Shown here: positions 27,801 through 42,545 of the stretch, piece after piece | Layout of the letters: each line of letters starts with the position of its first letter | How positions within the stretch are numbered: position 1 is the stretch's first letter | Origin: a virus | Direction: 5' to 3' (one strand) | Length of the DNA stretch: 64,000 nucleotides | IMG/VR virus record: IMGVR_UViG_3300020410_000948 | Coordinates: 29,807-93,806 of that record | Made by a program: the position numbers and the translations under genes | The notes under the pieces: generated by a model | What the model saw: only the letters and a program-made list of their open reading frames with translations | Told to the model about the DNA's origin: nothing | The model's database searches: none

Positions 27801-28163
27801 AAAAGCAATGTTCATATTAGCGTTATCAGGTGCAGGCTGTCCAATAGCTAAGTTTAGCGCGCCTGTAGCAGAGACATTTCCTATATTCAAGTCGATGCCT
27901 TGAGTGACGCCAGAGCCTCCAGCAAACTGAAGATCAAGAGCAGAGTTAACTCTACTACCAAGCGGTGTAGGTGTGAAAAGGCCCATACCATCGCATCTAA
28001 AACCAAGAACTTCAGGTACGCTCAATGTTCTAAACGTCGAAGACCTAGTAGCTCCTATCTTCAATGGCATGTCGCCAACAGAGGAGGCTATCCCCTTTAC
28101 ATATGCTATAGTATCTCCGCTAGCTGGCACAGAGCCAGTTAGGAATAAAGTTCCTTTACTCAT
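24894..28163 (-). CDS. Virion protein with a central FG-GAP-like propeller and flanking short beta repeats
   Basis: GFGSRIIVSGDLAFVSAP...NGAVYIF, LFGYDID...SVGEP, RFGSFVS; many xxL(F/Y)xxG repeats at both ends. Confidence 0.6.
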   Translation of the reverse strand: MSKGTLFLTGSVPASGDTIAYVKGIASSVGDMPLKIGATRSSTFRTLSVPEVLGFRCDGMGLFTPTPLGSRVNSALDLQFAGGSGVTQGIDLNIGNVSATGALNLAIGQPAPDNANMNIAFSGVHGAVNSIPCAEGNLRTFGANILNNNMTLHINRNSATGAPPLYMGSPDPVNADMPLVLNTEFFGSGIDLDQHGHALASSNTTLFLNDRNMSEDLDLFMQAPEPAVADTTLYASGSIAPSANSLSNNFSHQSLPSLSTAPFDTSTSAEAVISPTNSNSISRNKLLESSMDYGYRRISSIGSTIAQYSGFYADSFYENETSRTSIDSNGTYLAIGSNTSVLSTQYALQIFEVVNSSSVKLKYTYDNFLEELKAAGVINSDENFIKIFYKDVKISPAHKIAVSIRVEVSSSYKDIVCILEPSTITTSTVSSDITDICALNPIVTKEIITSSVDGWKLTKAVSSKSWTADTRLDEKLNIIMGTSVAWNGEDLYFDKQSNRYASVKVMLASDSYSGYTTAFSFSDTSDGTGYYDNRYNLPEGTKVGFGSRIIVSGDLAFVSAPLMDNYVANNTLSATNASSPNGAVYIFKNDGGWSNTDSVYAGGFTSTNIAGEGSCGYEPKLFGYDIDYDSVSEFLSVGEPVSKKAYQFVVDSDGTPRLDKSYTSTSNRFGSFVSSSSSSLFTNTASEVQDPRNSSSTSYSSSNISSEIEQYIAGEKVSSSTETITMCKKFDLLGSAVLLVGRDFSATYALGKKVTIQKISLMNLSDLSGTLMLQGPLQSTGIVDLSMQTFGTANNDMSVTFAAYGVTGATTLYMASPGGSTGIIPLHMRASTELDFPLFITAERRPSSGILTTYMSGPSGLTGAMNLMAEPHAAATKQADLSLLGAVGNSEQLGFDLFLPQVDIFDASGQQNLQIANAIGPGTGNITGLRSLYLGAGDFGPASGITTAVMKGPEFLVGSGDMDILLRVDEPSGTDAKANDLMLQNTQTSIPRDSLVGGIITRKGLDIVMNAAGPANSGVDLVLYRKGLSGGQEIEKTMNMSLTNITVSSNVNVYTSGANIVNGDMNVAISGVFGAINKDASLYTKGYQL

Positions 28164-31100
28164 TATTCATCCTCCGAACTAACTGTTGGATAAGATCGTA
28201 TAAACAATGGTAATATCTCTGGTTTCTGTACATCAAAATTTCCATACCTATCTAAGCCACCACTACCTGTGAGACCATGATTTACAAGGCCGTTGTAGTC
28301 ACCATCTGAGTTATAGTACAAAACCTGAATAGAATCACTGCTAGTTCCACGACTAATAGTGTTTTCTTTATCAAAATACGCAGCCGATTTTGAAGAGCCT
28401 ATTCTTATAATTCCCGGAGCTTCTCCTGACGGCGTATCTTCAGAGCTGGTGCAGTCAAGTCTTCTGTTCAAAGTGTCCTCATATGCTGAACAATGAAATC
28501 TTCTTATGACTCCAAGATCATAATCACGGTAAGATAGCTTAGCAGAAATAACCCTAACATCGCTTACAAATGAATGCTGGTTTGCAACCGCATCATAAGG
28601 CTTGCTGTAAGGAACAAAATCTAACTCTTGCTGTCTCATGTCGGATGTCCATTTTTGTCGGTATTGGTCTGGATCTATGGAAATATTTTGATTGACAAGA
28701 CCAACAATAAGGCTGTCTTCTATTGATGCTTCCGAATTAAAGCTAGGTTTGTTCTCATCGTCAAAGTTCAATGTGTAAGTGTTTATCTCTCCTGCCAGAG
28801 TAGCTCTACCGTTTCCATCATTATATCTAAATGTTCTGTCGTCAGAACTGTTTTTTAACACACTTCCCGATCTTATAAATCTAAATAGTTCCGCTGTCGT
28901 GAAGGAGTATGTGCCTCTCCATTCAAGTATAGCTTCGCCTAAAGCAAGAGACTTCTGCTGGAATGTACCCTCTCTTGCTACGTCATAACTATCCTGCATA
29001 CCATCAGTATAAAGGGGAGCTCTTGTCGCAGTTTTTGCTCCGTACTTCAAATTTATTCCGGACAGATGACCCTTCTGTGTTATGGTTTTTCTTGGGTCTT
29101 CATTGTAAAGTGTCATCACAGGGAATACTGCATCTGCGCCTATATCGACACCAGCCTGCAAGCAAATATTATTACCTATATCGACAGTGAATTCAGCGCC
29201 GACTAACTTTCTTATGATCTGTTCTTCATCCGAAACATTATCAATATTATATACTAAACATAAACCTTTATGATCTTCACAAACATCAAATATATTATCA
29301 GCAGATGAGACTCCTGCGCCATCCCTGTAAGAGAACATATTGTTTAAATTGTAAGGTTTTTTTGAATCGAACTTTTCTGTGAAGCTAAAATACGGTGATG
29401 AAAAGTAAGTTTTGCCTACATTCTGGAAGTCTATTCTTTTACTCCTGCCTGAGTCAGAAAATACAGCATGCCCAATAGGTGTCTTCAAAACTATTTTTCC
29501 ATCTAAGACATCAAACATATCATCCATAAGATATGCGATAGAAAGACTATGGTCGCAATTCTCAGAAAACGTTAGCGTGCCTTCTCTAAAATACTTTATG
29601 TAACTTAAGTCTGAAGCAGTCCCTCGATCTGAGCGACTGTCTGGGCTATTAATGGCGGGCGTAATCTTCTGAAATAGATTGACGCTTTTTAATGAGTCGC
29701 TAATCTCATAAAGATATAGTCTCTGAGCCAAAACATCTACAGATACATCAAACTCACTATTGTAGGACGTTCCATTTGTTGCTAAAATATGTCCGTCTGA
29801 TCTAAAGTTGTGACCAAAAGGAGTTCTTAATAATATGTTATCGTCTTCAATGTCTGAACTATTGACAGTTGCAAAGTTATTTCCTGCGTTAACACTATAC
29901 ATGTTACCTAAGCCGGGATACAGTCTAAAGAAAGTTACAGATGTATCGGCAAAACCTTGAGCTTCTTGAAACGATGGAGAGTTATAAGAAGTGCCCGAAG
30001 ATGAGGGATAGTAAACACTTTGAGAATTGCCATCGTGTACTTTTGAAAATTCCCAGAATTGCATAGGATCAGAGTAAAGATTGCTATTCACATTGTATAT
30101 GTTGTAATCATCATTCTCTAGCTTTTGTGCCGCTGTAAAATTTTGATATTCTTCTGAGCCAGATTCTATTTGAATATCTAAATTAAATGTGTCAAACTCG
30201 CTTCCACTTAAAGTAGAGGAGCTTTTATATAAGGTTGTGTTGTCACCCTCAAAAAATACTTTTATCCCATCGCCATCTGTTCCGGCAATAATCTTACCAT
30301 CTACATACTGCATAGAGAAAGGCTTGCCATACCATCCTACCATGTTTCTGTATCTTGTGGAGAGGTCATTAGAGGCATTGAAATAGTTTTGCTCAACAAC
30401 CTTTTCTCGCAATCTAGTTGTGTGATCCAAAAACTTAGAATTGTATTCTTGGTTTGGATTATATACATATATAGATCCACATCTAAATTTATTACCAAGA
30501 TTGTCTGAGTTGGTTCCATCAGTACAAAAGTCCATTATGAACTGATTTGTCTTAGTGTTTCTTTCATAGAAATCAAGCGAATCTCTATCGTCATATCCAG
30601 CATCTGTCGCTGAGTCTATCTTATTTTTTAGTTCCTCTAGCTGACTATCTGCAGACTGACTGACTGATGCTATGTGGGGAAATGTCCTATTAGCAATTGC
30701 GACTATAGGCTTTAATTCTGAGCCAGTAAGGTTTGGTAAATGGTTTTCTTTAAGTGCTATGCTATAGCCAAAGCCATCCGCAAATTTATAGCCGTCTGTA
30801 AGCCACCTAAATGAAATAGCATCTTTTTTCTGAAAGTATGGGAGCGTGTTGTCTTTTACATATTTTACTATATTCTCTCTATAGAATTCAGAGTCCCATC
30901 TCCTCTTAAAGGAAGCTCTTTTGCTACCATCAGTCTTCAAGAAAAACTCATCATTTTCAAAGGCTTCCTCAAGACTTTTATTCGAGTTTTCAACCGTAGA
31001 AAAAACTCCAGATGTATTATCAGCAATAGCATTTGCCACAGCTGCTCTATACCAATACAAATTTCTATAGTCTGTGAAGACATCCATTGTAACACCAGAG

Positions 31101-32848
31101 TCTTGAAATGGTGCAGTATTGACGTAAGGATTGGTAGTTGATGCGTCTATTTGATCTGGCGTTGATATGTCACTCAAAAAATCATTTGTTGTGCTAAGCT
31201 TGTATAAAAACACTTTGCCAAAGGGCTTGCTATCGGGCTCTACAAATTTGAATCCGCCTTCGTTTTCATAGGATCTAAACAAAGTGCTTGAATCGCCCAC
31301 ATCAGCTCTCTCATCTACTATGACAGGACTAGCCTTTCTTTTATTGCCATAGTAATCAATACCCTCTAGACAGGAATAAGGCGCACCAACTTCGCTGATG
31401 GCCAGCCAGTAAAAATCTTGATCGGACTGTCGGACTATATCTACAGACTGTCCAAATCTATATTTATCAGCAACAACAGAAGTGCCGTCATAATCTACTA
31501 CAGTTTCAGATGTAGGAGCAGAAAAGGTGTGATCGGTTGGAATAAGCATATCATCTTTAAAAACCGACTGACCGTTCAATCCATTCGGAGAAAAGAGAGT
31601 CGTGTAGTAGCGCCAAGAACCAGTAAGGTCTTGGGTTGAGCCATAATGAGTCCATGTTACACCGGACACACTTCTAAGAGAAGACGTGTCTGTAGGTTCA
31701 TACATCCTTTCATCATCAAACACAAAGTATTGAGTATCACTAATTCTTTTTACATACTTGATACCGTTGGCTGGATGATTGGTAGCGACAGTGTTATTAG
31801 TATTTACTGCGCCAGATATTTTAATTATATCTCCATCTTGAAGTAGCTTTGTATCATATGTGCCATCACCGCTTGGCCCAGATAAAGTTATTTTATTTCC
31901 ATCGACCGCAGTAACAGAACCCTTACGTCTTTCATATATATCTACTCTGCCACATCTATTATGTACTCCTGTTTTACTAAAAAACGAACTACTAGATACG
32001 TCAAACAATACTTTAATAAAACTAATATTTTGTGAAGAATCGCTAGGATTTACAAAAGAAAATATAGTTTCTCCTTGATTAGCAAAAGAAGTGAGGTTGG
32101 CGGAAGTGGGTGAAAAGTTAACAGCCAGACCTTTGTAATTACTACCTTCAATTTTTGCTATAGATGTCGTCGTAGGAAAGAATATAATATCCATGCTAGG
32201 ATTATATCCTAATGAATCTGTAATATAACTATCTTTTTTGACTGCCACTTTACTAACATCAGTGTCAACCGAATAAGATGTTTTTGATAAAACTGAAGTT
32301 GTGGAGGAATCGCCATCTACTAGAGTAAAATCTATACGAGAATCTTTACCCGCATTAGAATTCACAAAATTAGAAATATCATCATTAGAAGCTCCGACAT
32401 TCATAAATACTAATCCTGTCTGGAGTTCGTATTCAGTTGTGGTAGACTCATATCCAACAGTGTATGTTTTCTTAATTATAAAAAACTTTTCTGTATTATC
32501 CAGAGATCTATTCGCCAGAAAAACTTTTTGGCTATGGTCTTTATAGGAGACTATAGCAATGTCGTCGAGTATCTTTATGTCACTGGGAAATTTGCTGCAT
32601 GTATCGTCAGAAAAATCTCCGAATATAGAGGGGGCATTGTCACGATAAGGACTGCTCGTAAAGGCGGAGAGAGGCGTTCTGCCTCTGTTTATAGAGGTTA
32701 TTCTATCATTAAAGTTAGTAAAGCATTCTATTCCGCCGGGACCTTGTAAAAATAAGTCCATCTCAGAATTTCTCTGCGAAACACCATTAGTCCCTGTCTC
32801 ATCATTTTGTATGAATAGGGATGTGTTTTGGTTAGGTTTACAACTCAT
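28163..32848 (-). CDS. Large virion protein with FG-GAP-like segments
   Basis: CGRVDIYE, RFGQSVDI, FGKVFLY, GFGYSIAL, GSIYVY; TAATG coupling to the tape measure stop. Confidence 0.6.
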   Translation of the reverse strand: MSCKPNQNTSLFIQNDETGTNGVSQRNSEMDLFLQGPGGIECFTNFNDRITSINRGRTPLSAFTSSPYRDNAPSIFGDFSDDTCSKFPSDIKILDDIAIVSYKDHSQKVFLANRSLDNTEKFFIIKKTYTVGYESTTTEYELQTGLVFMNVGASNDDISNFVNSNAGKDSRIDFTLVDGDSSTTSVLSKTSYSVDTDVSKVAVKKDSYITDSLGYNPSMDIIFFPTTTSIAKIEGSNYKGLAVNFSPTSANLTSFANQGETIFSFVNPSDSSQNISFIKVLFDVSSSSFFSKTGVHNRCGRVDIYERRKGSVTAVDGNKITLSGPSGDGTYDTKLLQDGDIIKISGAVNTNNTVATNHPANGIKYVKRISDTQYFVFDDERMYEPTDTSSLRSVSGVTWTHYGSTQDLTGSWRYYTTLFSPNGLNGQSVFKDDMLIPTDHTFSAPTSETVVDYDGTSVVADKYRFGQSVDIVRQSDQDFYWLAISEVGAPYSCLEGIDYYGNKRKASPVIVDERADVGDSSTLFRSYENEGGFKFVEPDSKPFGKVFLYKLSTTNDFLSDISTPDQIDASTTNPYVNTAPFQDSGVTMDVFTDYRNLYWYRAAVANAIADNTSGVFSTVENSNKSLEEAFENDEFFLKTDGSKRASFKRRWDSEFYRENIVKYVKDNTLPYFQKKDAISFRWLTDGYKFADGFGYSIALKENHLPNLTGSELKPIVAIANRTFPHIASVSQSADSQLEELKNKIDSATDAGYDDRDSLDFYERNTKTNQFIMDFCTDGTNSDNLGNKFRCGSIYVYNPNQEYNSKFLDHTTRLREKVVEQNYFNASNDLSTRYRNMVGWYGKPFSMQYVDGKIIAGTDGDGIKVFFEGDNTTLYKSSSTLSGSEFDTFNLDIQIESGSEEYQNFTAAQKLENDDYNIYNVNSNLYSDPMQFWEFSKVHDGNSQSVYYPSSSGTSYNSPSFQEAQGFADTSVTFFRLYPGLGNMYSVNAGNNFATVNSSDIEDDNILLRTPFGHNFRSDGHILATNGTSYNSEFDVSVDVLAQRLYLYEISDSLKSVNLFQKITPAINSPDSRSDRGTASDLSYIKYFREGTLTFSENCDHSLSIAYLMDDMFDVLDGKIVLKTPIGHAVFSDSGRSKRIDFQNVGKTYFSSPYFSFTEKFDSKKPYNLNNMFSYRDGAGVSSADNIFDVCEDHKGLCLVYNIDNVSDEEQIIRKLVGAEFTVDIGNNICLQAGVDIGADAVFPVMTLYNEDPRKTITQKGHLSGINLKYGAKTATRAPLYTDGMQDSYDVAREGTFQQKSLALGEAILEWRGTYSFTTAELFRFIRSGSVLKNSSDDRTFRYNDGNGRATLAGEINTYTLNFDDENKPSFNSEASIEDSLIVGLVNQNISIDPDQYRQKWTSDMRQQELDFVPYSKPYDAVANQHSFVSDVRVISAKLSYRDYDLGVIRRFHCSAYEDTLNRRLDCTSSEDTPSGEAPGIIRIGSSKSAAYFDKENTISRGTSSDSIQVLYYNSDGDYNGLVNHGLTGSGGLDRYGNFDVQKPEILPLFIRSYPTVSSEDE

Positions 32849-35800
32849 TATGCTACTCTGCCATCCTGTTCTCGCTGCCACATTGTGATTGCATTGTCTA
32901 TCTTGGTTGCCGTGCTTGAAGCGACCGAATCTCCGATAATATTAACCAGCTTGTTAATTGCCTCCTGAGTAAATCCGGGTATCGCTAAACTTCCGCTAAC
33001 ATTTACATTGTGTGTTATCTGCATGTTTCCAAACTGTGTTGCTATATCCTGTAGCGCATTAGCTACAGTATTAAAGGCTGACATAGCTTGAGAAACATTA
33101 TCTAAAGCCTCCATCAGTGCGTTTCTACCGCCGAAGATACCTCCGCCGTTTTGCCTATACTGAACTCCAGCAACAGAGCCGCCTCTAGCAAATCCGGGAA
33201 CCTTGCCCCTGTTAACCTGTTTCATGAATCCAGTGCCGTGCTTTTTGACAGCAGCAGTACTCATAACAAACTCTCCGGGAGTCAACATAGCTGGCACAGA
33301 ATCTACAGAACCACCCGAGGCAAAGCCTCGAAAGTTTGCCATGGCAAAGTCACTAGTACCTCGAAATCTTTGCCCAAACCCTGTCGCAAAAGCATCCCTG
33401 AGTGCAACCATGTCTGCATAAAATTGAGGATTATAAAGGGCGTTTAGTAGCCCCTCTGTCCCGCTTTGGGCGTTATTAAACGCGATCACAGTAGACCCAA
33501 TTTTACCTTTGGTGTTATCGTCCTTTCGAGCCTTGATAGCCGTATGATAAACTCTTCGCTTGTATAGTCCACTATTTTCGCCTGCCTTTCTAACAGCCTC
33601 GTGGGTGAATGGTGTGCCCGCAAACGGGTCTTGATTACCACGCTTTCCGAATATAGCCCTGTAAAAATCTGATGGTACGACAAATGTGCGTTTTTGCCCA
33701 AGCGCCGGGTTCATGTAAATATTCCCGTCTCCGCCCATCGCCATTAGTTGGCCCTCTTTAGCTACGACTCTTCCAAAATTTATTCCTTCACTATTCGTAT
33801 TCGATCTTACTGCGCCATAACGTGAAGCATAATCCTGTAAGCCCTTAATAGCCCAGATTGTATCGGGGAAAAGCTTCGCTATTGCTCCCTGCGCCCCCTG
33901 TAACGCCATCGCATAGAGTTTACGAAAGTTCTTGACGTTGGGGTCTTTTGCTGCTGCATTTTTTTGCTTTTTGTTTAAAAGATCTCCTTTCGCCACGAAT
34001 GAGCCTTTAAGTAATTTAGTTAAACCTTGTTCTATGAATCCTCCGCCGGCTGCATATACAGTAGAAGCGTTACCGTTATTTAAAGCACTTAGAGCTCCTA
34101 CACCAATTTTGTCTACAGCACTTTTCCTAATAACAAATTCACCCGGCGTTAACATTGCTGGCACTGTGTCTGTGCCTCTTGGCTTGAATACATTACCTCC
34201 TTTAGCAAAGCCTCTAACAGGAACAAAACCTCCTCTAGCGGCACCGCCCGCATTATCAGCCTCCTCAACTGCTGTATCGGTATTGTCTTTTAGCCATTGC
34301 AAAAGATTTTCCGCAGCAGTCTTCATGGAGGTAAGAGCTTCTATTTGAATGTTTGCTTCCTGTTCCTCAAGCTTTCTAAGTGCTGCAGCAGCGTCCTGCT
34401 CCTCTTTGTTTATTTGACGAAGGTCATTAATAAGTTTTTCTTCCTTTGTGGTAGCTTCAAATATAGCTTTTACTAGCTGGGGAGGTACACCTTGTTGTCC
34501 GCCTGACATCATTCGGAACTGTTGCTCCATCTGTCTGATTTGAAGGTTTTTAGAAACATCACCACCAGTCATGCCACCAAATATTGGGACATCTTTAAAC
34601 TGATCTAAAAGCTTACCTACGGCAGCTCTAAACTTATCAGGTATTGCATTTATGTTTCCTGTCTGTAACACTTTTTGCAAGGCCATAAACTCTTGGTTCA
34701 TTCCTTGTCGCTGTTCATTAGTGGCAAAGGTAAAGTCCTTTATGGCTCCCTGCATTGCTTCTCGGGCGCCCTTTTCTTTGTCTATCTCCTCCATAACAGC
34801 TGCGGCTTCATCAGACCTGTCAGCCAAAACCTTAAGCGCATCTTTAGTTCTGGTTATCTCGTCTTGTAATAACTTTTGGGCGTTGGCCATATCTTGGTCA
34901 CGCTTTATGGCCGCTGTTCCTACTACTGGGCCAGCAGCATTTCTGGCCTGCTGTATTTGATTTACCCGAGCATTCATTGCCTGACCTCGGGCCGCAAGAC
35001 CAGCTACATTTACTGGGCCACGCATTCCAGCTGCAGCGGCAGCTTTTTGATTGGTCATTCCTCTAGCCATACGCGCAGTCATTTCTTGACCAGTAGCTTT
35101 TAGTATTCTGTTGATACCTTTGTGTCTGACATCAATCTCGAATTTGTACGCATCGACTATCTCTTTCTTGTTCTTCCTTACGGCATCGCCAATAGCAGAA
35201 AGAACATTGACATAATCACCTTGGGCTTTAGCTAATTTCTGTAGTAGCTTTACTTGGTGACCTACCTCGGCGCCTAATATCTCCGTAGCTTCTGCAATAT
35301 CTGTGGAGTCAAATCCATCATCAAACAGCTTTAAGAGTTTTTCTTGCATAGCATCTGAAAGGCTTGTAAAATCTATGCCCGCATCGCTGAGCGCTTGTTT
35401 CCTCTGTGTGTTACTTAGGTTTTCTCCTGCGAACTGCTCAACCAAACTATCCAAAGCGCCTTCTAATTTCTTGTTCTTCGCTAAGCCTGATCTTATACTC
35501 TCAGCTATTTCTGGACTAATTCTTCTTGCTGCAGCAAACGCTTCTGGGCTAAATCCATCTTTCAGGGTTGCTATAAGACCGCCAACATTTACTTTAGCAT
35601 CCTGTATAGACCCAGAGAAGCCCTTGACAGCACTATCAATTTGACCCATTGCTACACTTGCCAACTCAAATCCGCGATTGGCTTTATTTATAGCTTGAGT
35701 TCTCGCCCTTTCAAGTCTCACTAATTCTAACTCGGCAGCCTTCAATGCCTTCAATTCGCGGATACGCTCTTCTTCTGCCGCCGCAGCCTCTTTGTTTGCT

Positions 35801-38800
35801 TTATCCAAGTTCTCGGCAGCTTCCTCTGCTTGTTCTTGACCTTTGGCTTTTGCGATTGCTTTCTCTCTAGTTTTTACCAGTTCTTTTTCTGCAGCTGAAA
35901 GATCTTCAAAGCTTCTGCTGCCAAAACCAGCACCAGACATGGCTTCATCACGAGCTGATCCTGAAGCAAGAATTTCTTTTTCAAAGCCCTTCGATAATGT
36001 TTGGGTCAATTGATCTAATTGTGCTTTGTATCTTGGGTCTGCAAATATATCATCAAAAGATCTGCCAGATTCGCGCATACTTTCAATCATAGTTGATATG
36101 CCTTCTCTGACCCTTGCAGCTGCTTCAAAGTTTGCTTTTGCTAATTCTTCTCTAGAGTTTTGAAGCTGCTCTCTAGCCGCTTCAAACTCTTCGCCCTCAA
36201 AAATATTTTGATCGCCAAGCTCTTTAAGTTTCTGTTCATATTTTGCCATTGCTTTATCAGCCCTAGACTGTCCGCCAACAAAATCACTAGTAGCTTTTAT
36301 GTTTGCATTAACAGCTTTCATGCCTTTTAATTGCAGCTGCTCGTTCTTTTTTATTGCTGCATTATAGTTGCCTAAAGTTTCGGCAGTTTCTGCTGACGCG
36401 TCTACAAAAGATTCGATAGCCTCCTTTTGCGCAATGATCTTCCTGTATTTTTCTGACTGCTCTTGAGCACCCTTGACAGCTCTTGCGAAGGGAGAAAATA
36501 CGGCTACTGTGCTATAGAGAGCTCCTGCGAAGTCTCCCTCCATCAAAGCTTTTCCCGCATCTATCGCATGGCCGAAACCTGTAAGTTGATTAAAGGCTAC
36601 ACTAGCGACATTACCTAAGCTATACATTTCCGCAGCCGCTGACTCGTCTACAAAAGTTCCTAGTTCATTTGTAACCCTAGTTCTATCAAACTTGCCTCCG
36701 CCTTCTATTACTCTCTTTGATTCTTCTGCGGCAGATTCAGCCATAGCTTTTGCGGCTTCTGAGGCTTGCATCGACAAGAACTGAAAGACGCCTATAAGAG
36801 CTATAACAACAACAGCCAGCGCAGCCATTGGAGCGTTAGCAATAGTTTGCGCTATTGTGTTCTTCACGGTTGCTAAAGTATTGGCTCCAGTAGCTACAGT
36901 TTCAGCTATTTTAGCTTCCATTTGTGCAATCATAGGAACTATAATCATTCCTAGTACACCAGCAAGCATAAGTGCTCCACTGGCGGCTTTTTTAGTGGCC
37001 TCCGAAAGGTTAGTAGCTTCCAGCGCCATAGGAGCCATAAATGTAGCCATCATAGCAGCATTGCCTATTCCGCCCATGCCTCCTCCGGCGGCTTTCTGAG
37101 TTTTAGCGTTTTGAACAGGAGCTGTACCTGTGGGAGCTACTCCGGTAGGGGCAGGACCTTTAGGAGCAAATGCAGCGTACTTACCTCCGGCGGTTTGAAT
37201 TTGAGTTCCGGCTGCCTGCGTCTGCTGGCCTGTCACCTGCCCCTTTTGCGCCAGCTGCTGGAAGGCTTTTCCGCTCAGGTTGAACGCTCCATCCATAAGA
37301 CCAAGCGGACCCAAAGTCCTAAGTACGCCACCTCCAAGTTTTTTTGCAGTAGTGCCAGCCATTGTGAGTCCAGACTTCATTTGAGCAAGAATGGGCGTAG
37401 CGCTTTTTAGCTGGCCAGCAAACGCCGTTAAAGATGGACCTAAAGTCGCACTTCCCATCATGCCCTGATTTCCACCGCCCCCCATAAATGATTGGCCTCC
37501 CCTCATAGCCGATGCAGGGCCTACTCCGCCACCCATATTAAAGTGAGCGACTCCGCTTTTGTTCATTCTGTTTAGATTGCCATAGCCTATAGACTGGGCT
37601 GATGATTTATTTATTACATACTCGCCGGGAGTTAACATGGCAGGAACAGTGTCTACTTGACCGCCTTTGTTGAATCCTGTTACATTAAATAAACCTTGTG
37701 CAAAGGCTAGAGATGGATTTTGTGCGATATAGTTGCCTAACTTCTTAGGAATCCCCGTAGGTCTAGCTGCCTCAGCTTTGCTCCTTTTTACCTCCATAAC
37801 TTTAGCTAAAGACATGTTGTCACCATAAAGAGCGGTAAGACTTTGCCTGTTGCGTGACACCTCTCCAAACCCGAGGTCAAAGCTAGCCTTACCTCTAGAT
37901 GGAATGGCTCCGGTCATTGCGGAAATAACACCTTCTTGTATAAAACCTTCCATTGACTCTACAGCCGTGTCATCTAAAGCGGATGAGGTCCTTGCTGCAG
38001 CAATTTTGCTCTCATTCACGTTAAGAGCTGGTAAAAGATCTAGCAGTCCAGACGATCCTATCGTTGTTGATGCTTTAGCAACACCAGTACTTATAGCATC
38101 CATAGCTGCGGCCTGAATGATGCTAGCGAATCTCCCTCCTCTTAACTTTTGTGGCTGAGGTGCAGATATTGGATAAGATCCAGAGCCTACATTAAAAGGA
38201 ATACGCTGCTTCGCAAGCAAGCTTCTATCTCCACCCATATATTTCTGTGCAAGTGTATTTTGTACGTTGGCGGGAAGCTGATTACCCAAAACCATTTGGT
38301 TACCGCCTTTACCTGCAAATCCGCCTCCGTGAGTATATGTGGTGAGGGTTCCTACCGGAAGCATCACCGCCCCACCAATAGCTCCAGCTTTAGGCGACAT
38401 TGTTAGAGGAGGAATATTAACTGCTTTCTTAGTGGCAGCACCCTTCTGTTTCGACATAGCTGATGCGGCGGCGACTGCAGGCACTCCTGTTCCAGCCGTA
38501 CCGTTTGCGTACTTATTTGCTCTAGCAAGATTTTCAGCTCCGATAGACTGTACACTACTTTTCTTAATTACAAACTCGCCCGGACTAAGCATTGCTGGCA
38601 CAGTGTCTCTATTACCACTTCCGGGGACTAAGCCTCCTCTATTAAAGCCATATATTTTGCCGCCCTGATTCTTGCCGGCAAGTCCAGAAAATCTACCAAT
38701 TGCGGGAACAGCAATCTTACCTAGCTGAAACGCCGCCAAAGCTGTCATGAGAGGCAGTAGGGGCTCTAGAGCATCTACTACATTTAGTATAGCCTCTGCA

Positions 38801-40062
38801 AATCTAATAGCTCCTCTAGCTAAAGTCTGGAAAGTATCACTGCCAGCAATATCACGTATTGTTTTGTCAAACTCTTCTTTGAGTTTTGCGAAGGCGTTGC
38901 CCAAACCTAGTTGTGCTGTAGCGGCATCTCTAGCTGTTGATCCAGATGAAAGATTAGCTAAGGCAAGAGCTTCTTGTGTTGTGCCGAACTGCTTTAATAA
39001 TGGAATGACTTTACCGACCTGTCTAAAACCACCAAGCTGTTCAACAACTTCTTGGAATCTAAAGTCCGTAGCCGAAAGACCGGAAAGACCTATTTGCAAC
39101 CTTTTAATTGCTTCAAGCGGACCAACAAACTCACCCTTTGCATTTCTAAGCTCTATACCAAGTTCTCTAAGCTGTTCAACAGTCTCAGTTCTTTGTATAC
39201 GAGTGAAGATAGTTCTAAACCCAGTCGCGATAGTCTCTGCAGTTTCACGGGTCGTGGCTCTCACTGAAGTGAACAAGGCTATCAACTCATTGATTTTACC
39301 TCCGGCAGCTTCAAACACACCCCCAGTTCTACGAACCGCAGAAATCAAGTCGGCAGATTCGACAGCAAAGTTCTTAGAAACTGTATTGATTGCATCCAAA
39401 GATTTTTCAAGAAACGCTAGGTCTCCACCTGTCGCCCTAGCCTCATTCCTAAACTGCCTAAGTATAGCAATCGCACCTTCTGTAGTGTCAGCCAAGTTAT
39501 CAAAGGTTGCTCCCAGATCTGTCCTAGCCAGTATAGCTAACGCCTTCTGTGTTTTGCTTGCAGAAAAACCTGCCTGAGAAAGTGTCCTCGCTACATTAAG
39601 TAATTCGCTAGAAGAGACACCAAGACTCGTAGATAGTTTACTAACCTCTCCAGTTAGGCTCTTCATCCCCGACATGGTTTTGCCGGTGACCTGACTTATC
39701 TTTAACAGTTCTTTCTCGAAATCTACAGCTCTACCAAACGCCTCGGTTATACCTCTAGCCAAAGCCAAGAAAGCTCCAGTAGCAATAGTAATAGACGCAA
39801 ATCTTCTTGCTGCTGCGCCAAGAGCAGAACCAAGGCTGGTTGCTGATCTAGAAGCTGTTTTTAAATTGGCACTAGCTGATTTAGCTGAGTTCGCAACATT
39901 CTGAACTTGTTTATTCGCATTAGCTAATGCCTGAGTATTTATTGTTGGGTTAATAGTTATATTTGCTTGCGAAAGCTGACGGCGTACCTGCGTAATAACC
40001 TGACGGGTATTCGTAGGTGCTTGCAACTGCATTTGTGCCGTTAGTACAAATCTGCCTGCCAT
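32848..40062 (-). CDS. Tail tape measure protein (TP901-type core) with four internal repeat motifs
   Basis: 2404 aa, Ala/Gly-rich helical; PhageMin_Tail-like N-terminal region; hydrophobic central segments; follows the tube and chaperone genes. Confidence 0.92.
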   Translation of the reverse strand: MAGRFVLTAQMQLQAPTNTRQVITQVRRQLSQANITINPTINTQALANANKQVQNVANSAKSASANLKTASRSATSLGSALGAAARRFASITIATGAFLALARGITEAFGRAVDFEKELLKISQVTGKTMSGMKSLTGEVSKLSTSLGVSSSELLNVARTLSQAGFSASKTQKALAILARTDLGATFDNLADTTEGAIAILRQFRNEARATGGDLAFLEKSLDAINTVSKNFAVESADLISAVRRTGGVFEAAGGKINELIALFTSVRATTRETAETIATGFRTIFTRIQRTETVEQLRELGIELRNAKGEFVGPLEAIKRLQIGLSGLSATDFRFQEVVEQLGGFRQVGKVIPLLKQFGTTQEALALANLSSGSTARDAATAQLGLGNAFAKLKEEFDKTIRDIAGSDTFQTLARGAIRFAEAILNVVDALEPLLPLMTALAAFQLGKIAVPAIGRFSGLAGKNQGGKIYGFNRGGLVPGSGNRDTVPAMLSPGEFVIKKSSVQSIGAENLARANKYANGTAGTGVPAVAAASAMSKQKGAATKKAVNIPPLTMSPKAGAIGGAVMLPVGTLTTYTHGGGFAGKGGNQMVLGNQLPANVQNTLAQKYMGGDRSLLAKQRIPFNVGSGSYPISAPQPQKLRGGRFASIIQAAAMDAISTGVAKASTTIGSSGLLDLLPALNVNESKIAAARTSSALDDTAVESMEGFIQEGVISAMTGAIPSRGKASFDLGFGEVSRNRQSLTALYGDNMSLAKVMEVKRSKAEAARPTGIPKKLGNYIAQNPSLAFAQGLFNVTGFNKGGQVDTVPAMLTPGEYVINKSSAQSIGYGNLNRMNKSGVAHFNMGGGVGPASAMRGGQSFMGGGGNQGMMGSATLGPSLTAFAGQLKSATPILAQMKSGLTMAGTTAKKLGGGVLRTLGPLGLMDGAFNLSGKAFQQLAQKGQVTGQQTQAAGTQIQTAGGKYAAFAPKGPAPTGVAPTGTAPVQNAKTQKAAGGGMGGIGNAAMMATFMAPMALEATNLSEATKKAASGALMLAGVLGMIIVPMIAQMEAKIAETVATGANTLATVKNTIAQTIANAPMAALAVVVIALIGVFQFLSMQASEAAKAMAESAAEESKRVIEGGGKFDRTRVTNELGTFVDESAAAEMYSLGNVASVAFNQLTGFGHAIDAGKALMEGDFAGALYSTVAVFSPFARAVKGAQEQSEKYRKIIAQKEAIESFVDASAETAETLGNYNAAIKKNEQLQLKGMKAVNANIKATSDFVGGQSRADKAMAKYEQKLKELGDQNIFEGEEFEAAREQLQNSREELAKANFEAAARVREGISTMIESMRESGRSFDDIFADPRYKAQLDQLTQTLSKGFEKEILASGSARDEAMSGAGFGSRSFEDLSAAEKELVKTREKAIAKAKGQEQAEEAAENLDKANKEAAAAEEERIRELKALKAAELELVRLERARTQAINKANRGFELASVAMGQIDSAVKGFSGSIQDAKVNVGGLIATLKDGFSPEAFAAARRISPEIAESIRSGLAKNKKLEGALDSLVEQFAGENLSNTQRKQALSDAGIDFTSLSDAMQEKLLKLFDDGFDSTDIAEATEILGAEVGHQVKLLQKLAKAQGDYVNVLSAIGDAVRKNKKEIVDAYKFEIDVRHKGINRILKATGQEMTARMARGMTNQKAAAAAGMRGPVNVAGLAARGQAMNARVNQIQQARNAAGPVVGTAAIKRDQDMANAQKLLQDEITRTKDALKVLADRSDEAAAVMEEIDKEKGAREAMQGAIKDFTFATNEQRQGMNQEFMALQKVLQTGNINAIPDKFRAAVGKLLDQFKDVPIFGGMTGGDVSKNLQIRQMEQQFRMMSGGQQGVPPQLVKAIFEATTKEEKLINDLRQINKEEQDAAAALRKLEEQEANIQIEALTSMKTAAENLLQWLKDNTDTAVEEADNAGGAARGGFVPVRGFAKGGNVFKPRGTDTVPAMLTPGEFVIRKSAVDKIGVGALSALNNGNASTVYAAGGGFIEQGLTKLLKGSFVAKGDLLNKKQKNAAAKDPNVKNFRKLYAMALQGAQGAIAKLFPDTIWAIKGLQDYASRYGAVRSNTNSEGINFGRVVAKEGQLMAMGGDGNIYMNPALGQKRTFVVPSDFYRAIFGKRGNQDPFAGTPFTHEAVRKAGENSGLYKRRVYHTAIKARKDDNTKGKIGSTVIAFNNAQSGTEGLLNALYNPQFYADMVALRDAFATGFGQRFRGTSDFAMANFRGFASGGSVDSVPAMLTPGEFVMSTAAVKKHGTGFMKQVNRGKVPGFARGGSVAGVQYRQNGGGIFGGRNALMEALDNVSQAMSAFNTVANALQDIATQFGNMQITHNVNVSGSLAIPGFTQEAINKLVNIIGDSVASSTATKIDNAITMWQREQDGRVA
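33235..38650 (-). repeat. Four copies of the GG...D(T/S)VPAML(T/S)PGE(F/Y)V motif inside the tape measure
   Basis: Copies at about 38539-38650, 37585-37678, 34100-34212 and 33235-33327. Confidence 0.9.
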
Positions 40063-40156: not shown

Positions 40157-41119
40157 CTATGTAATTTCTTCAGTCTTTTTAGGTCTACCTCTTTTTTTAG
40201 GTTTTTCTGCTACTTCTTCAACCTCTTCTTCCGAAGCTTCCTCTTTACTAGGGACATCTACAGGCTTTCCGCTGTCATCTAAAAACGGACTGAATGCGCC
40301 AGCAACAGTGCCTTCTTCGTCAACTTCTTCACCATCAATGTTAACAAAATAAGCTTGTTCAGGATCTTGATTTTTGTATCCTTCATCAGTTTTATAAGCA
40401 ATATATCTGCCGTCTTCGTTGATTAGCCTTTCTGTTACACCGTCTTCATCTAAAGCAATTCGATGACCGTCAGTATTAATTAACTCATAATTTTCATTAG
40501 CAAAGTTATAAGTAGACAAGAACTTGTTTTCTTCAAGAGTATCGTCATAATTAGGATCTAACTCATATATCAATCCTGCAAGCTTAGATGCTGCTTCTGC
40601 AGCAAACGGTTCTGCAGCACGTTTATCATAATCTTCCTGAGTAGCAAAGAAAGGTCCTGACTGATTCTCTTTTAGAATACAGAGACTAACTAGAGCATTA
40701 AACCTAGCATTATCTGCCTGACCCTCAACAGTGTTTGCGTCTAAGACGGTTCTTTCTGCAACAAGAGATCTAAATCTGCCTCTTACCTTTCTAAGATCTA
40801 AAGCTGTTTTTCTAGCATCCTTAAGTGGGATACCTCCTGACTTAAGAACTTTTTCAAGAGACATCATTTGGTCTACAAGCTTTTGCTCTTCGCTCTCTTT
40901 TTCATCGTCCCATAGTCCTTGATCACGCATGTACTCATTTAGCTTTTTCTTAAGCACAGCTCCGCTATCTAAAGCCGATCTAAATGCTTTGTTATAACTA
41001 ATTTGTGAGTCCCTGTATTCCTTGACTGTGGGCTTTTTGACATAAACAGTTACATCATTTCCATCTGCATCCTGTCCTGTAAAAAGGCCTTCTCTTTTAT
41101 CTTGTTCTTCTTTAGCCAT
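40157..41119 (-). CDS. Putative tail assembly chaperone (paralog B)
   Basis: Lies between tail tube and tape measure; similar to 41487..42545; GAAGGAG RBS before ATG 41119. Confidence 0.55.
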   Translation of the reverse strand: MAKEEQDKREGLFTGQDADGNDVTVYVKKPTVKEYRDSQISYNKAFRSALDSGAVLKKKLNEYMRDQGLWDDEKESEEQKLVDQMMSLEKVLKSGGIPLKDARKTALDLRKVRGRFRSLVAERTVLDANTVEGQADNARFNALVSLCILKENQSGPFFATQEDYDKRAAEPFAAEAASKLAGLIYELDPNYDDTLEENKFLSTYNFANENYELINTDGHRIALDEDGVTERLINEDGRYIAYKTDEGYKNQDPEQAYFVNIDGEEVDEEGTVAGAFSPFLDDSGKPVDVPSKEEASEEEVEEVAEKPKKRGRPKKTEEIT

Positions 41120-41480
41120 TTTCTTCTCCTTCTTTCTTATTAACAACTGGTAGTGTTAAGCTGTATTTTTTCCAATTAATATCGTAGTTAACAAACTCTG
41201 CTTTTAGGTTTCTCATTTGAGCATTTCCCCGATCCAATATCTGAGATCTGGCTTCTTCAAATATTTTCTTTAGTTGGGATTGTTCTGGAGTAAGTTCCCC
41301 ATCAGCTTCCCAAAGAAAACCAAAACTCTTCTCTATTGTATCAAGAGCCCCAATCATAGTAGTTTGTATTTTCTTTCTAGAGATTTCATAAAGTCTCGTT
41401 TTAGAAATTTCTTTATATCTCTCCTCTCTTTTTGCCTTCAAGTCTAATGACTGTCTTAGCAAACTATTAAAATCATCCAT
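41112..41480 (-). CDS. Hypothetical helical protein in the tail chaperone region
   Basis: 122 aa, closely packed with its neighbours. Confidence 0.6.
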   Translation of the reverse strand: MDDFNSLLRQSLDLKAKREERYKEISKTRLYEISRKKIQTTMIGALDTIEKSFGFLWEADGELTPEQSQLKKIFEEARSQILDRGNAQMRNLKAEFVNYDINWKKYSLTLPVVNKKEGEENG

Positions 41481-41486
41481 TTTTCA

Positions 41487-42545
41487 TCACCTTCCTCCTT
41501 TAAATCTATCAGCAACTGCTTGCTGTCTCTGCATTTGAATATCCAACTTAACATCAGGCATAGCTGTATGTTTTAAGTCTTCTCCATCTGTATCTTTAAT
41601 TCTATTTTGTCTTTGTATAATAGTTCCTCTAGCAACAGGATCATTTACTTCAAATATTTCTCCGGCCTCTTCTGGAGTCCTAGCCATCACAAACATCTCG
41701 TTAGAATTTTTAATCTTGTCATTAGAGGTCATGGATTCAATTTCTCTCTCTTTTCTTTCTTTCTTTGCTTTACGCTTTTGTGCTACAAACCATCCATCTA
41801 GAGCGATATCATCCTCTATAATTTTTTCGTTGGGATGTTCAGGATGCTCTAATACATTATCATACATTCTACTGTAAGCGACAAGTCTAGCTTGTGGGGC
41901 TGTTATTTCCATAGCCGGTTTACCAAATAGATTGCATCCTCCAGACTTAAACAACGTCCACATTCCTTTCCATTCATCACACCTAGCTATGGTTCTTGTG
42001 TCTTCTAGACTTATAGCGTTTTTAGTATAATAATTTAATACCTTTGGTATTGTAAGTAAAGACCAGTCATAAAGCTGACCATCTCTGGTTTTTACAGTCT
42101 GTGAGATTATCCATTGCGTTCTAGCTAACTCTGCCGCACCTTCGCAGGTTAGATGTTTAAGAGAGCTCTTTTTACCTATCGCTTTGGACCATTTCTTTTC
42201 TAAACCAATGGCTTTTCTTTTTAACCTGCTAAGTTCTTTTTTATTATAAAAGTTTTTGAAAGCTTGATACTTGGTTTCCTCTACGTCTTTTTTAATTTTT
42301 TCAACCTCTCTGTCATCCAAAGGGTTCCAAAATCCATATTCTATAAGAATGGGAAGTATTTCTGCTTCGACATATGAGCCCTGTCTGTACGCCTCATCGT
42401 AAGCCTCATCGTATATTTCGTGTGAGTGTTCTATGATTTCAGAATCAGGTTCGTATATATATAAAAAGAGGCCGTCACGAGCTTTAAAACTCATGCGACC
42501 TCTTATGATTCTATATAATAATTTTTCGATACGAGCGTCCGCCAT
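41487..42545 (-). CDS. Putative tail assembly chaperone (paralog A)
   Basis: Directly after the tail tube gene; shares G(F/L)W and EGxA..AR motifs with 40157..41119. Confidence 0.55.
   Translation of the reverse strand: MADARIEKLLYRIIRGRMSFKARDGLFLYIYEPDSEIIEHSHEIYDEAYDEAYRQGSYVEAEILPILIEYGFWNPLDDREVEKIKKDVEETKYQAFKNFYNKKELSRLKRKAIGLEKKWSKAIGKKSSLKHLTCEGAAELARTQWIISQTVKTRDGQLYDWSLLTIPKVLNYYTKNAISLEDTRTIARCDEWKGMWTLFKSGGCNLFGKPAMEITAPQARLVAYSRMYDNVLEHPEHPNEKIIEDDIALDGWFVAQKRKAKKERKEREIESMTSNDKIKNSNEMFVMARTPEEAGEIFEVNDPVARGTIIQRQNRIKDTDGEDLKHTAMPDVKLDIQMQRQQAVADRFKGGR

Follow-up and report, generated by a model that had tools for sequence, protein, structure and literature searches.

On the minus strand of a 64,000-nucleotide stretch of viral DNA (positions 29,807 to 93,806 of IMG/VR record IMGVR_UViG_3300020410_000948; hereafter, the window), a single open reading frame (ORF) encodes a protein of 2404 amino acids (aa). 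We consider it likely to be a true tape measure protein (TMP) in which a constant backbone carries four old, paralogous junction modules (r1 to r4) that fence two bays (A and B) holding folded passenger domains. The gene (P0001) spans window 32848..40062, stop codon included; the full virus record from which the window comes is 93.8 kb long and has an estimated completeness of 61%. In the usual view, TMPs are rulers that sometimes bring along a cell-wall hydrolase. The ruler here is a fixed scaffold whose standard joints frame two bays open to exchange, and proteins resembling it from uncultured phages, 1,300-4,200 aa long, make up over 1,500 protein clusters that share this design.

A tape measure protein with four junction modules

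Judging from profile matches, the protein is a TP901-type TMP of an uncultured marine phage; an earlier note made from the nucleotide letters alone had already called it a tape measure protein. PhageMin_Tail (PF10145) matched aa 140-344 in Pfam (E 1e-22, 81.5 bits versus a cut-off of 33.2), TIGR01760 tape_meas_TP901 matched aa 99-430 in NCBIfam (E 1.5e-24, 86.7 bits versus a cut-off of 28.8), and several PHROG tape measure families matched as well. Its length, its two hydrophobic helices, and its place in the tail module are all those of a TMP. By analogy with other tape measure proteins, it would sit in the tail lumen and set tail length.

The core motif D[TS]VPAML[TS]PGE[FY]V occurs four times in the protein, at aa 486-498 in r1 (window 38569-38607), 804-816 in r2 (37615-37653), 1965-1977 in r3 (34132-34170), and 2254-2266 in r4 (33265-33303), all on the minus strand like every feature of the TMP given below. 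Each core is the center of a module of about 70 aa that opens with [FY]xxGG, continues through 1-8 residues, the 13-aa core, and two short helices predicted by AlphaFold2 (AF2; ..KS.V..IG...L...N), and closes with a second [FY]xxGG. Module boundaries were placed at aa 463-535 for r1 (FNRGG ... DTVPAMLSPGEFV ... YANG; window 38458..38676), aa 786-855 for r2 (FNKGG ... DTVPAMLTPGEYV ... FNMGG; 37498..37707), aa 1940-2016 for r3 (FAKGG ... DTVPAMLTPGEFV ... YAAGG; 34015..34245), and aa 2235-2305 for r4 (FASGG ... DSVPAMLTPGEFV ... FARGG; 33148..33360). A module profile scored 73.6, 90.9, 89.6, and 87.1 bits at these sites, respectively, and scores of 74-91 bits at all four exclude chance. The four copies in two bracketing pairs described in the earlier note were thereby confirmed, and the bracketed segments fall close to where it had placed them. 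The short flanking motifs that it listed are also real, and all eight were located: FNRGG at aa 473, FNKGG at 797, FNMGG at 841, FAKGG at 1952, YAAGG at 2003, FASGG at 2247, FARGG at 2291, and, after r1, YANG at 518, which lacks the second glycine.

The flanks recur in relatives. We used the best 120 relatives for all family counts of modules, spacing, and segment clusters. Among them, [FY]xxGG was found 5-22 aa upstream of 65% of 506 cores and 30-55 aa downstream of 78%, and 79% of all [FY]xxGG motifs were concentrated in the 11.5% of sequence around module cores. Within this genome, the four copies share about 80% DNA identity over the core and have no long exact runs. Each of the four positions, r2 included, keeps its own signature across the family, which implies that the copies are old paralogues with separate roles rather than recent duplications. 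The modules are probably structural joints and may act as hinges or as docking points for the tube, for a chaperone, or for each other.

Between and around the modules, the protein divides into segments of different character. The N-terminal domain, which holds the TP901-type core (aa 1-462; window 38677..40062), forms one homologous cluster in 117 relatives. Bay A (aa 536-785; 37708..38457) is a folded domain found only in TMPs. After r2 comes a Gly/Met-rich linker that is 21% glycine by composition (aa 856-1005; 37048..37497), followed by two hydrophobic, transmembrane-like helices at aa 1027-1045 and 1079-1097 (36772..36984) with Kyte-Doolittle 19-residue means of 2.15 and 2.48. This hydrophobic pair likely forms the membrane hairpin of the ejected TMP, and two transmembrane regions are typical of tape measure proteins (PMC13033339). 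The central charged, helical ruler (aa 1111-1939; 34246..36732) has 29% charged residues and belongs to a single homologous cluster in the family. Bay B (aa 2017-2234; 33361..34014) is an orphan domain whose helical framework is conserved at both ends and hypervariable in the middle. The C-terminal segment (aa 2306-2404; 32851..33147) consists of two long helices, at AF2 model residues 378-406 and 427-464, and forms one cluster in 109 relatives. It is presumed to be the hub-binding end by analogy with the hub-binding TMP C-termini of phage lambda and mycobacteriophage Douge.

This arrangement recurs in the family, whose members are giant TMPs from long-tailed phages, uncultured and for the most part marine. 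The common layout is an N-terminal domain, r1, bay A, r2, a Gly-rich linker, two transmembrane helices, a ruler, r3, bay B, r4, and a C-terminus, with the first module near aa 485 and the last one some 145-165 aa before the C-terminus. Four modules were present in 82 of the 120 relatives and five to seven in another 31. In several relatives with three modules, r3 runs directly into the C-terminal ~100 aa and bay B is missing, which makes a bay plus one module a unit of presence or absence. Tandem modules without an insert occur in L018, L026, L053, L054, L057, L058, L060, L066, L067, L072, L075, and L081; such pairs may represent bays that are empty, or a fenced bay in its ancestral form.

Constant backbone and variable bays

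Aligning the TMPs of related phages was the check that the earlier note had proposed, with constant repeats and variable inserts as the expected outcome, and this is the pattern seen across a very large family. When inter-module segments were clustered, the N-terminal domain, the central region, and the C-terminus each fell into one cluster. Bay A formed two large clusters, and bay B and later bays formed dozens of clusters that were unrelated to each other.

The same division was evident along an identity profile built from the four closest full-length relatives (P0003, P0004, P0005, and P0007). The N-terminal domain was 94-97% identical overall, with most 40-aa windows of the alignment at 90-100%. 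Identity was 60-80% in most windows of bay A between flanks of 95-100%. It ranged from 28% to 82% over the Gly-rich linker and membrane helices (28-72% among close relatives for the linker itself, aa 856-1005) and was mostly 80-98% in the ruler, with lower values in parts of P0007. The r3 core was 98-100% identical, a level that extended to aa ~2000. Identity then fell to 12-30% at aa ~2040-2200, within bay B, in P0004, P0005, and P0007, between flanks of 85-100%, and was 80-100% from r4 to the end of the TMP (90-100% in the C-terminal segment, aa 2306-2404).

Pairs of relatives with N-terminal domains at least 95% identical could be aligned over at least half the length of bay B in only 73% of cases, where median identity was 58%, as compared to a median of 94% from r4 to the C-terminus in the same pairs. 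The two bays also differed from each other in how far they had diverged: P0050 and P0054 share 33% identity in bay A and 94% in bay B, and P0011 and P0014 share 34% and 72%, respectively. Hence, on backbones that are nearly the same, the two bays are exchanged independently of each other. Strong purifying selection acts on the modules and on the backbone.

Recombination at the module edges

A codon alignment made with one relative (L002) resolved where the variable segments begin and end. The backbone had a synonymous divergence (dS) of 0.3-0.6 and a ratio of nonsynonymous to synonymous divergence (dN/dS) of 0.06-0.17, with 0.06 in the N-terminal domain (aa 1-462) and 0.17 over aa 1201-1939 of the ruler. 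In bay B, synonymous sites were saturated, with proportions of synonymous and nonsynonymous differences (pS and pN) of 0.81 and 0.50. Saturation at this level implies a different ancestry for bay B rather than mere diversification in place.

The left junction of the bay B cassette is the post-motif of r3 (STVY..GG), and the right junction is the pre-motif of r4, where nucleotide identity to L002 rises from 8/21 to 25/30 at GGSVDSVPAM. Together, these junctions indicate that a distant allele took the place of bay B, the crossovers having fallen precisely at the [FY]xxGG borders of r3 and r4. A further break lies in r1, where 60 nt at 100% identity end at the PGEFVI core. Immediately afterwards, at aa 500-509, the protein is identical and only 16 of 30 nucleotides match, and 28 aligned codons after the core are saturated at synonymous sites. 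This break in nucleotide identity marks a second crossover, one that lies inside a module. The variable domain of this TMP is thus swapped at a conserved junction motif, as expected of an exchangeable system. Cassette borders at [FY]xxGG edges, with saturation inside and moderate dS outside, imply that the repeats act as crossover points and bear out the recombination anchors that the earlier note had conjectured.

Folded domains of the two bays

The inserts had originally been described as non-helical. That description needs correcting, as AF2 predicted mixed alpha/beta globular domains. Bay A was modelled with a predicted local distance difference test (pLDDT) score of 80-90 over most of model residues 90-335, comprising beta strands and, after them, long helices and short strands. 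Its C-terminal half (aa ~663-785) is the conserved part. Homologues only 14-30% identical keep G706, E710, F728, D729, K759, and an acidic residue at position 757. The order of E710, D729, E757, and K759 fits the pattern E...D...(D/E)xK, and these residues were invariant or conservatively replaced in 16-42 homologues. This conservation suggests a catalytic or ligand-binding role for bay A. No stand-alone homologue of the conserved half was found, the single candidate being a 212-aa protein with 16% query coverage that we took for a gene fragment. A bay A profile retrieved nothing below E 0.4 from PDB sequences, and Foldseek and VIA searches with bay A, modelled within a multi-part segment, gave no fold match.

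Bay B presents a different picture. Searching 1.84 billion representatives with bay B returned only its own cluster and P0010. In the allele alignment, framework motifs at the two ends are common to the bay B alleles, and substitutions and indels set their middle parts apart. The AF2 model matched this division, with a pLDDT of ~90 in the framework helices and 53-67 in the middle; a fold search with the domain, also modelled within a multi-part segment, found no match. A conserved scaffold with a variable center would be expected of a binding domain and not of an enzyme. We infer that bay B is a host- or defence-interacting binding domain engaged in an arms race. Searches of the ESM Atlas for either bay domain yielded nothing usable.

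To see what other bays contain, we scanned 40 bays from relatives with Pfam. ADP-ribosyltransferase matches occurred in two of the 40, and a second ADP-ribosyltransferase family, ART, was matched in one bay. Single relatives' bays had weak glycine-zipper and Med14 matches, and the remainder of the 40 had nothing beyond the matches described here. Taken at face value, the matches hint at enzyme-type cargo in some of the family's bays. The first bay of L057:10226-12700 (+) is 825 aa long and includes both a stretch resembling an ADP-ribosyltransferase exoenzyme (PF03496, E 7e-5, 22.7 bits versus a cut-off of 23.4) and the conserved bay A subdomain. A bay in L053:7685-9973 (+) matches the J-domain (PF00226, E 1e-5, 25.9 bits versus a cut-off of 27.8), and one in L038:5228-7597 (+) matches SHD1 (PF03983, E 2e-9) above the cut-off.

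The module in lambda, Douge, and other phages

A profile of the four copies, searched against 177,635 PDB sequences, found two TMPs: lambda gpH, at aa 747-793 (E 9e-4), and Douge gp16 (PDB 8ZDO chain S), at aa 968-1012 and 1406-1462 (E 2e-5). These matches show that the module is old and widespread and that the one copy in lambda gpH is its homologue. The lambda protein (PDB 8IYK; PMC12617516) has the same GEFV core, two short helices, and trailing YATGG, and its module lies in a Gly-rich region before the hub-binding C-terminal helix, as r4 does here. It differs in having one copy and no bays, whereas here four copies fence two inserted domains, and cleavage has been demonstrated for lambda only. 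An unmapped cut in the Gly-rich region of gpH frees gpHC, a C-terminal fragment of ~14 kDa (residues ~690-853), of which residues ~690-817, spanning lambda's module, are resolved in no structure (PMC12617516). The module site falls inside gpHC, downstream of that cut.

Douge gp16 (PMC13033339) is similar in carrying two module copies that bracket ~390 aa, two transmembrane regions, and a C-terminus that docks into the hub of the baseplate, although the match is a distant one (E 2e-5). Only its residues 1658-1699 are resolved (PMC13033339). Searched as a whole, the TMP had no solved relative among PDB sequences, and the INPHARED phage collection gave only short matches, all to the repeat module. 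The module itself was present in more than 500 IMG/VR contigs and in genomes and metagenome-assembled genomes (MAGs) of many bacterial phyla. Short TMPs (~550-1000 aa) have one module and larger TMPs have two to six, some with tandem pairs. The earlier note had regarded the motif as usually single and near the C-terminus, which holds for lambda and the short relatives.

Proposed mechanism and rival explanations

As in lambda, T5, HK97, and Douge, the TMP would fill the tail lumen with its C-terminus in the hub. Like other TMPs, it would leave the tail whole and ahead of the DNA, C-terminus first, and its two hydrophobic helices might help to form a channel through the envelope. Bay B would then exit first and meet the host envelope, where its hypervariability would fit host-specific, exclusion, or defence contacts. 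Bay A, with its conserved charged site, would exit last, beside the N-terminal domain and the DNA end. The modules would serve as joints for assembly or packing in the tail lumen, and their conservation would make them preferred sites of recombination. Cuts at the joints might release the bays under this scheme, which does not require them.

Several observations weigh against a backbone with passenger-filled bays. Neither bay had a Pfam (E ≤ 10), NCBIfam, PDB-sequence, or fold match, and both bay domains occurred only inside TMPs, which fits integral structural parts equally well. Enzyme-type matches in relatives are at or below the curated cut-offs of Pfam. As monomers, the modules were modelled by AF2 with a pLDDT below 50. 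The order of ejection and the membrane topology are borrowed from other phages, and we estimate that three or six folded domains of 25-28 kDa would be tight in the ~4 nm lumen of a tail tube. Identity boundaries were located at modules at roughly double the expected rate (86 of 288 versus 16%), an excess that was counted over 26 close pairs that are not independent and is partly circular, with conserved modules adjoining variable bays. The ruler and the linker after r2 are mosaic as well, showing that recombination is not confined to modules.

Some of the same observations would follow if the bays were purely structural, serving as plugs, spacers, or docking knobs for contacts with a chaperone, the terminator, or the hub, and nothing in them acted on the host. 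This is the less likely case in our estimation, albeit one to be taken seriously. Both domains are restricted to TMPs and lack enzyme signatures, bay B adjoins the presumed hub-binding C-terminus, and three-module relatives manage without bay B. Variation might reflect co-evolution with other tail parts or weak constraint, and the tail genes nearby, for which Pfam and PHROG gave no matches, have diverged strongly as well. However, bay B alleles only 12-30% identical stand beside a C-terminus that is 90-100% identical, which is unexpected for a co-evolving contact. Residues E710, D729, and K759 of bay A are invariant at 14-30% identity and suggest an active or binding site, and some relatives' bays weakly match host-modifying enzymes. 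Those weak ADP-ribosyltransferase and J-domain matches would also suit a cargo polyprotein, in which a protease cuts near [FY]xxGG at tail maturation or after ejection and frees the bays as effectors. Lambda gpH is cut in a Gly-rich region just upstream of its module to give gpH* and gpHC (PMC12617516), T5 pb2 is processed too, and the xxGG edges are exactly the cassette borders and are strongly concentrated at modules. We nevertheless hold such processing to be unlikely. For cleavage here, lambda offers only an analogy, and cuts at r2 or r3 would detach both ends of the TMP from its membrane helices and ruler. Neither bay is a known effector domain, and neither was found as a free protein. 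Accordingly, the swappable effector domains of the earlier note stand as swappable, fenced inserts and not as imported effectors, neither insert having been found outside TMPs. A lambda gpK-like protease was sought and set aside: neither Prok-JAB (PF14464) nor NlpC/P60 (PF00877), the only two peptidase families sought, matched at E ≤ 10 in the 94-kb record, which is 61% complete.

Two narrower alternatives concern one bay each. Bay A might be a PD-(D/E)xK nuclease or a DNA-end-binding domain travelling beside the leading DNA end, given that a G-x3-E helix, F-D, and a [DE]-x-K strand are invariant over distant homologues and that, in front of the N-terminal domain, which in other phages probably lies nearest the DNA, bay A comes as the last large domain. 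The core order is non-canonical, though, with three short helices between D and ExK and no first strand before D. Pfam models for Hjc and UPF0102 found nothing in the record at E ≤ 10, no PDB sequence matched below E 0.4, and Foldseek and VIA revealed no nuclease fold for a domain that was not folded alone. We therefore consider a nuclease doubtful. For bay B, hypervariability limited to one domain with a conserved framework would also fit targeted hypermutation by a diversity-generating retroelement (DGR). This origin is contradicted here and has almost no probability in our view: no reverse transcriptase (RVT_1) was found in the record, itself 61% complete, and a search of the window for a template repeat of bay B was negative. 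Moreover, bay B alleles differ by indels and by saturated synonymous sites over the whole 220 aa, unlike the product of adenine-specific mutagenesis. Of the explanations considered, exchangeable passenger domains between conserved joints remain the reading that we favor.

Precedents and significance

Passengers in tape measure proteins have precedents. TMPs of several phages carry peptidoglycan hydrolases (PMC12617516). Thermus phage P23-45 gp96 (PMC10770324) is likewise a giant TMP, of 5,002 aa, with a virion RNA polymerase as a passenger that acts in the host after ejection; in contrast to the bays here, that passenger is N-terminal and a known enzyme, and no repeated junction modules or cassette exchange were reported. 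Sle1-type effectors of actinobacterial contractile injection systems (PMC13277306) likewise combine a scaffold derived from a TMP with functional domains that can be exchanged and that vary from relative to relative, but they are cargo of a bacterial injection system rather than a tail ruler, and their variable domain is C-terminal. Polymorphic toxins (Rhs, CdiA, and MuF-type; PMC3482391) also combine a conserved delivery scaffold with a short junction motif at which a variable domain is recombined. Unlike in those systems, the variable domains here are internal, the carrier is a TMP, and neither a toxin fold nor a neighboring immunity gene was found, although no search was aimed at such a gene; Pfam and NCBIfam identified no recognizable toxin or enzyme domain in the bays of this TMP. 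No description of repeated lambda-type joints fencing exchangeable internal bays across a family was found in the searchable literature, which leaves subscription journals outside. What this phage adds is that both bays are orphan domains of TMPs only, together with the codon-level crossover map and the tests in which a nuclease, a protease, and a retroelement were sought with negative outcome.

What makes this phage valuable is its architecture and the evidence of recombination rather than any named activity. Should the bays act in the host, the tail lumen would offer a general path by which pre-made proteins enter ahead of the DNA, and hypervariable bay B would represent a new front in the conflict between phage and host. 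The link to lambda gpH offers a testable handle on where and why gpH is cut and on the role of its C-terminal region. Going further, the lambda-type module might be a general cassette adaptor of TMPs for virion-delivered passengers, with bay B alleles as injected binders that act against exclusion or defence or that engage envelope entry proteins, and the modules might mark maturation cuts. This extension is speculative, and we would sooner expect it to fail than to hold in full.

Genomic context

The TMP gene lies within a long block of genes on the same strand, with a weak match to a major head protein upstream. Apart from that hit, its neighbors had no Pfam or PHROG match, which places the lineage far from cultured phages. 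A search for the host among genomes and MAGs returned scattered phyla, the closest match being a SAR202 MAG at 31% identity, and because of this scatter we made no host call. Downstream on the same strand are ORFs of 1572, 1089, 566, 1441, 1156, and 1430 aa, presumably encoding distal tail or baseplate proteins. The first of these (window 28163-32881, minus strand), which has no Pfam or PHROG match, begins 34 nt inside the end of the TMP gene.

The slot upstream of a tape measure gene usually houses tail chaperone genes. In this phage, the region upstream of the TMP gene (window 40157-42545, minus strand) has ORFs of 352, 122, and 329 aa. None of the three had a Pfam or PHROG match, and the last two overlap by 35 nt.

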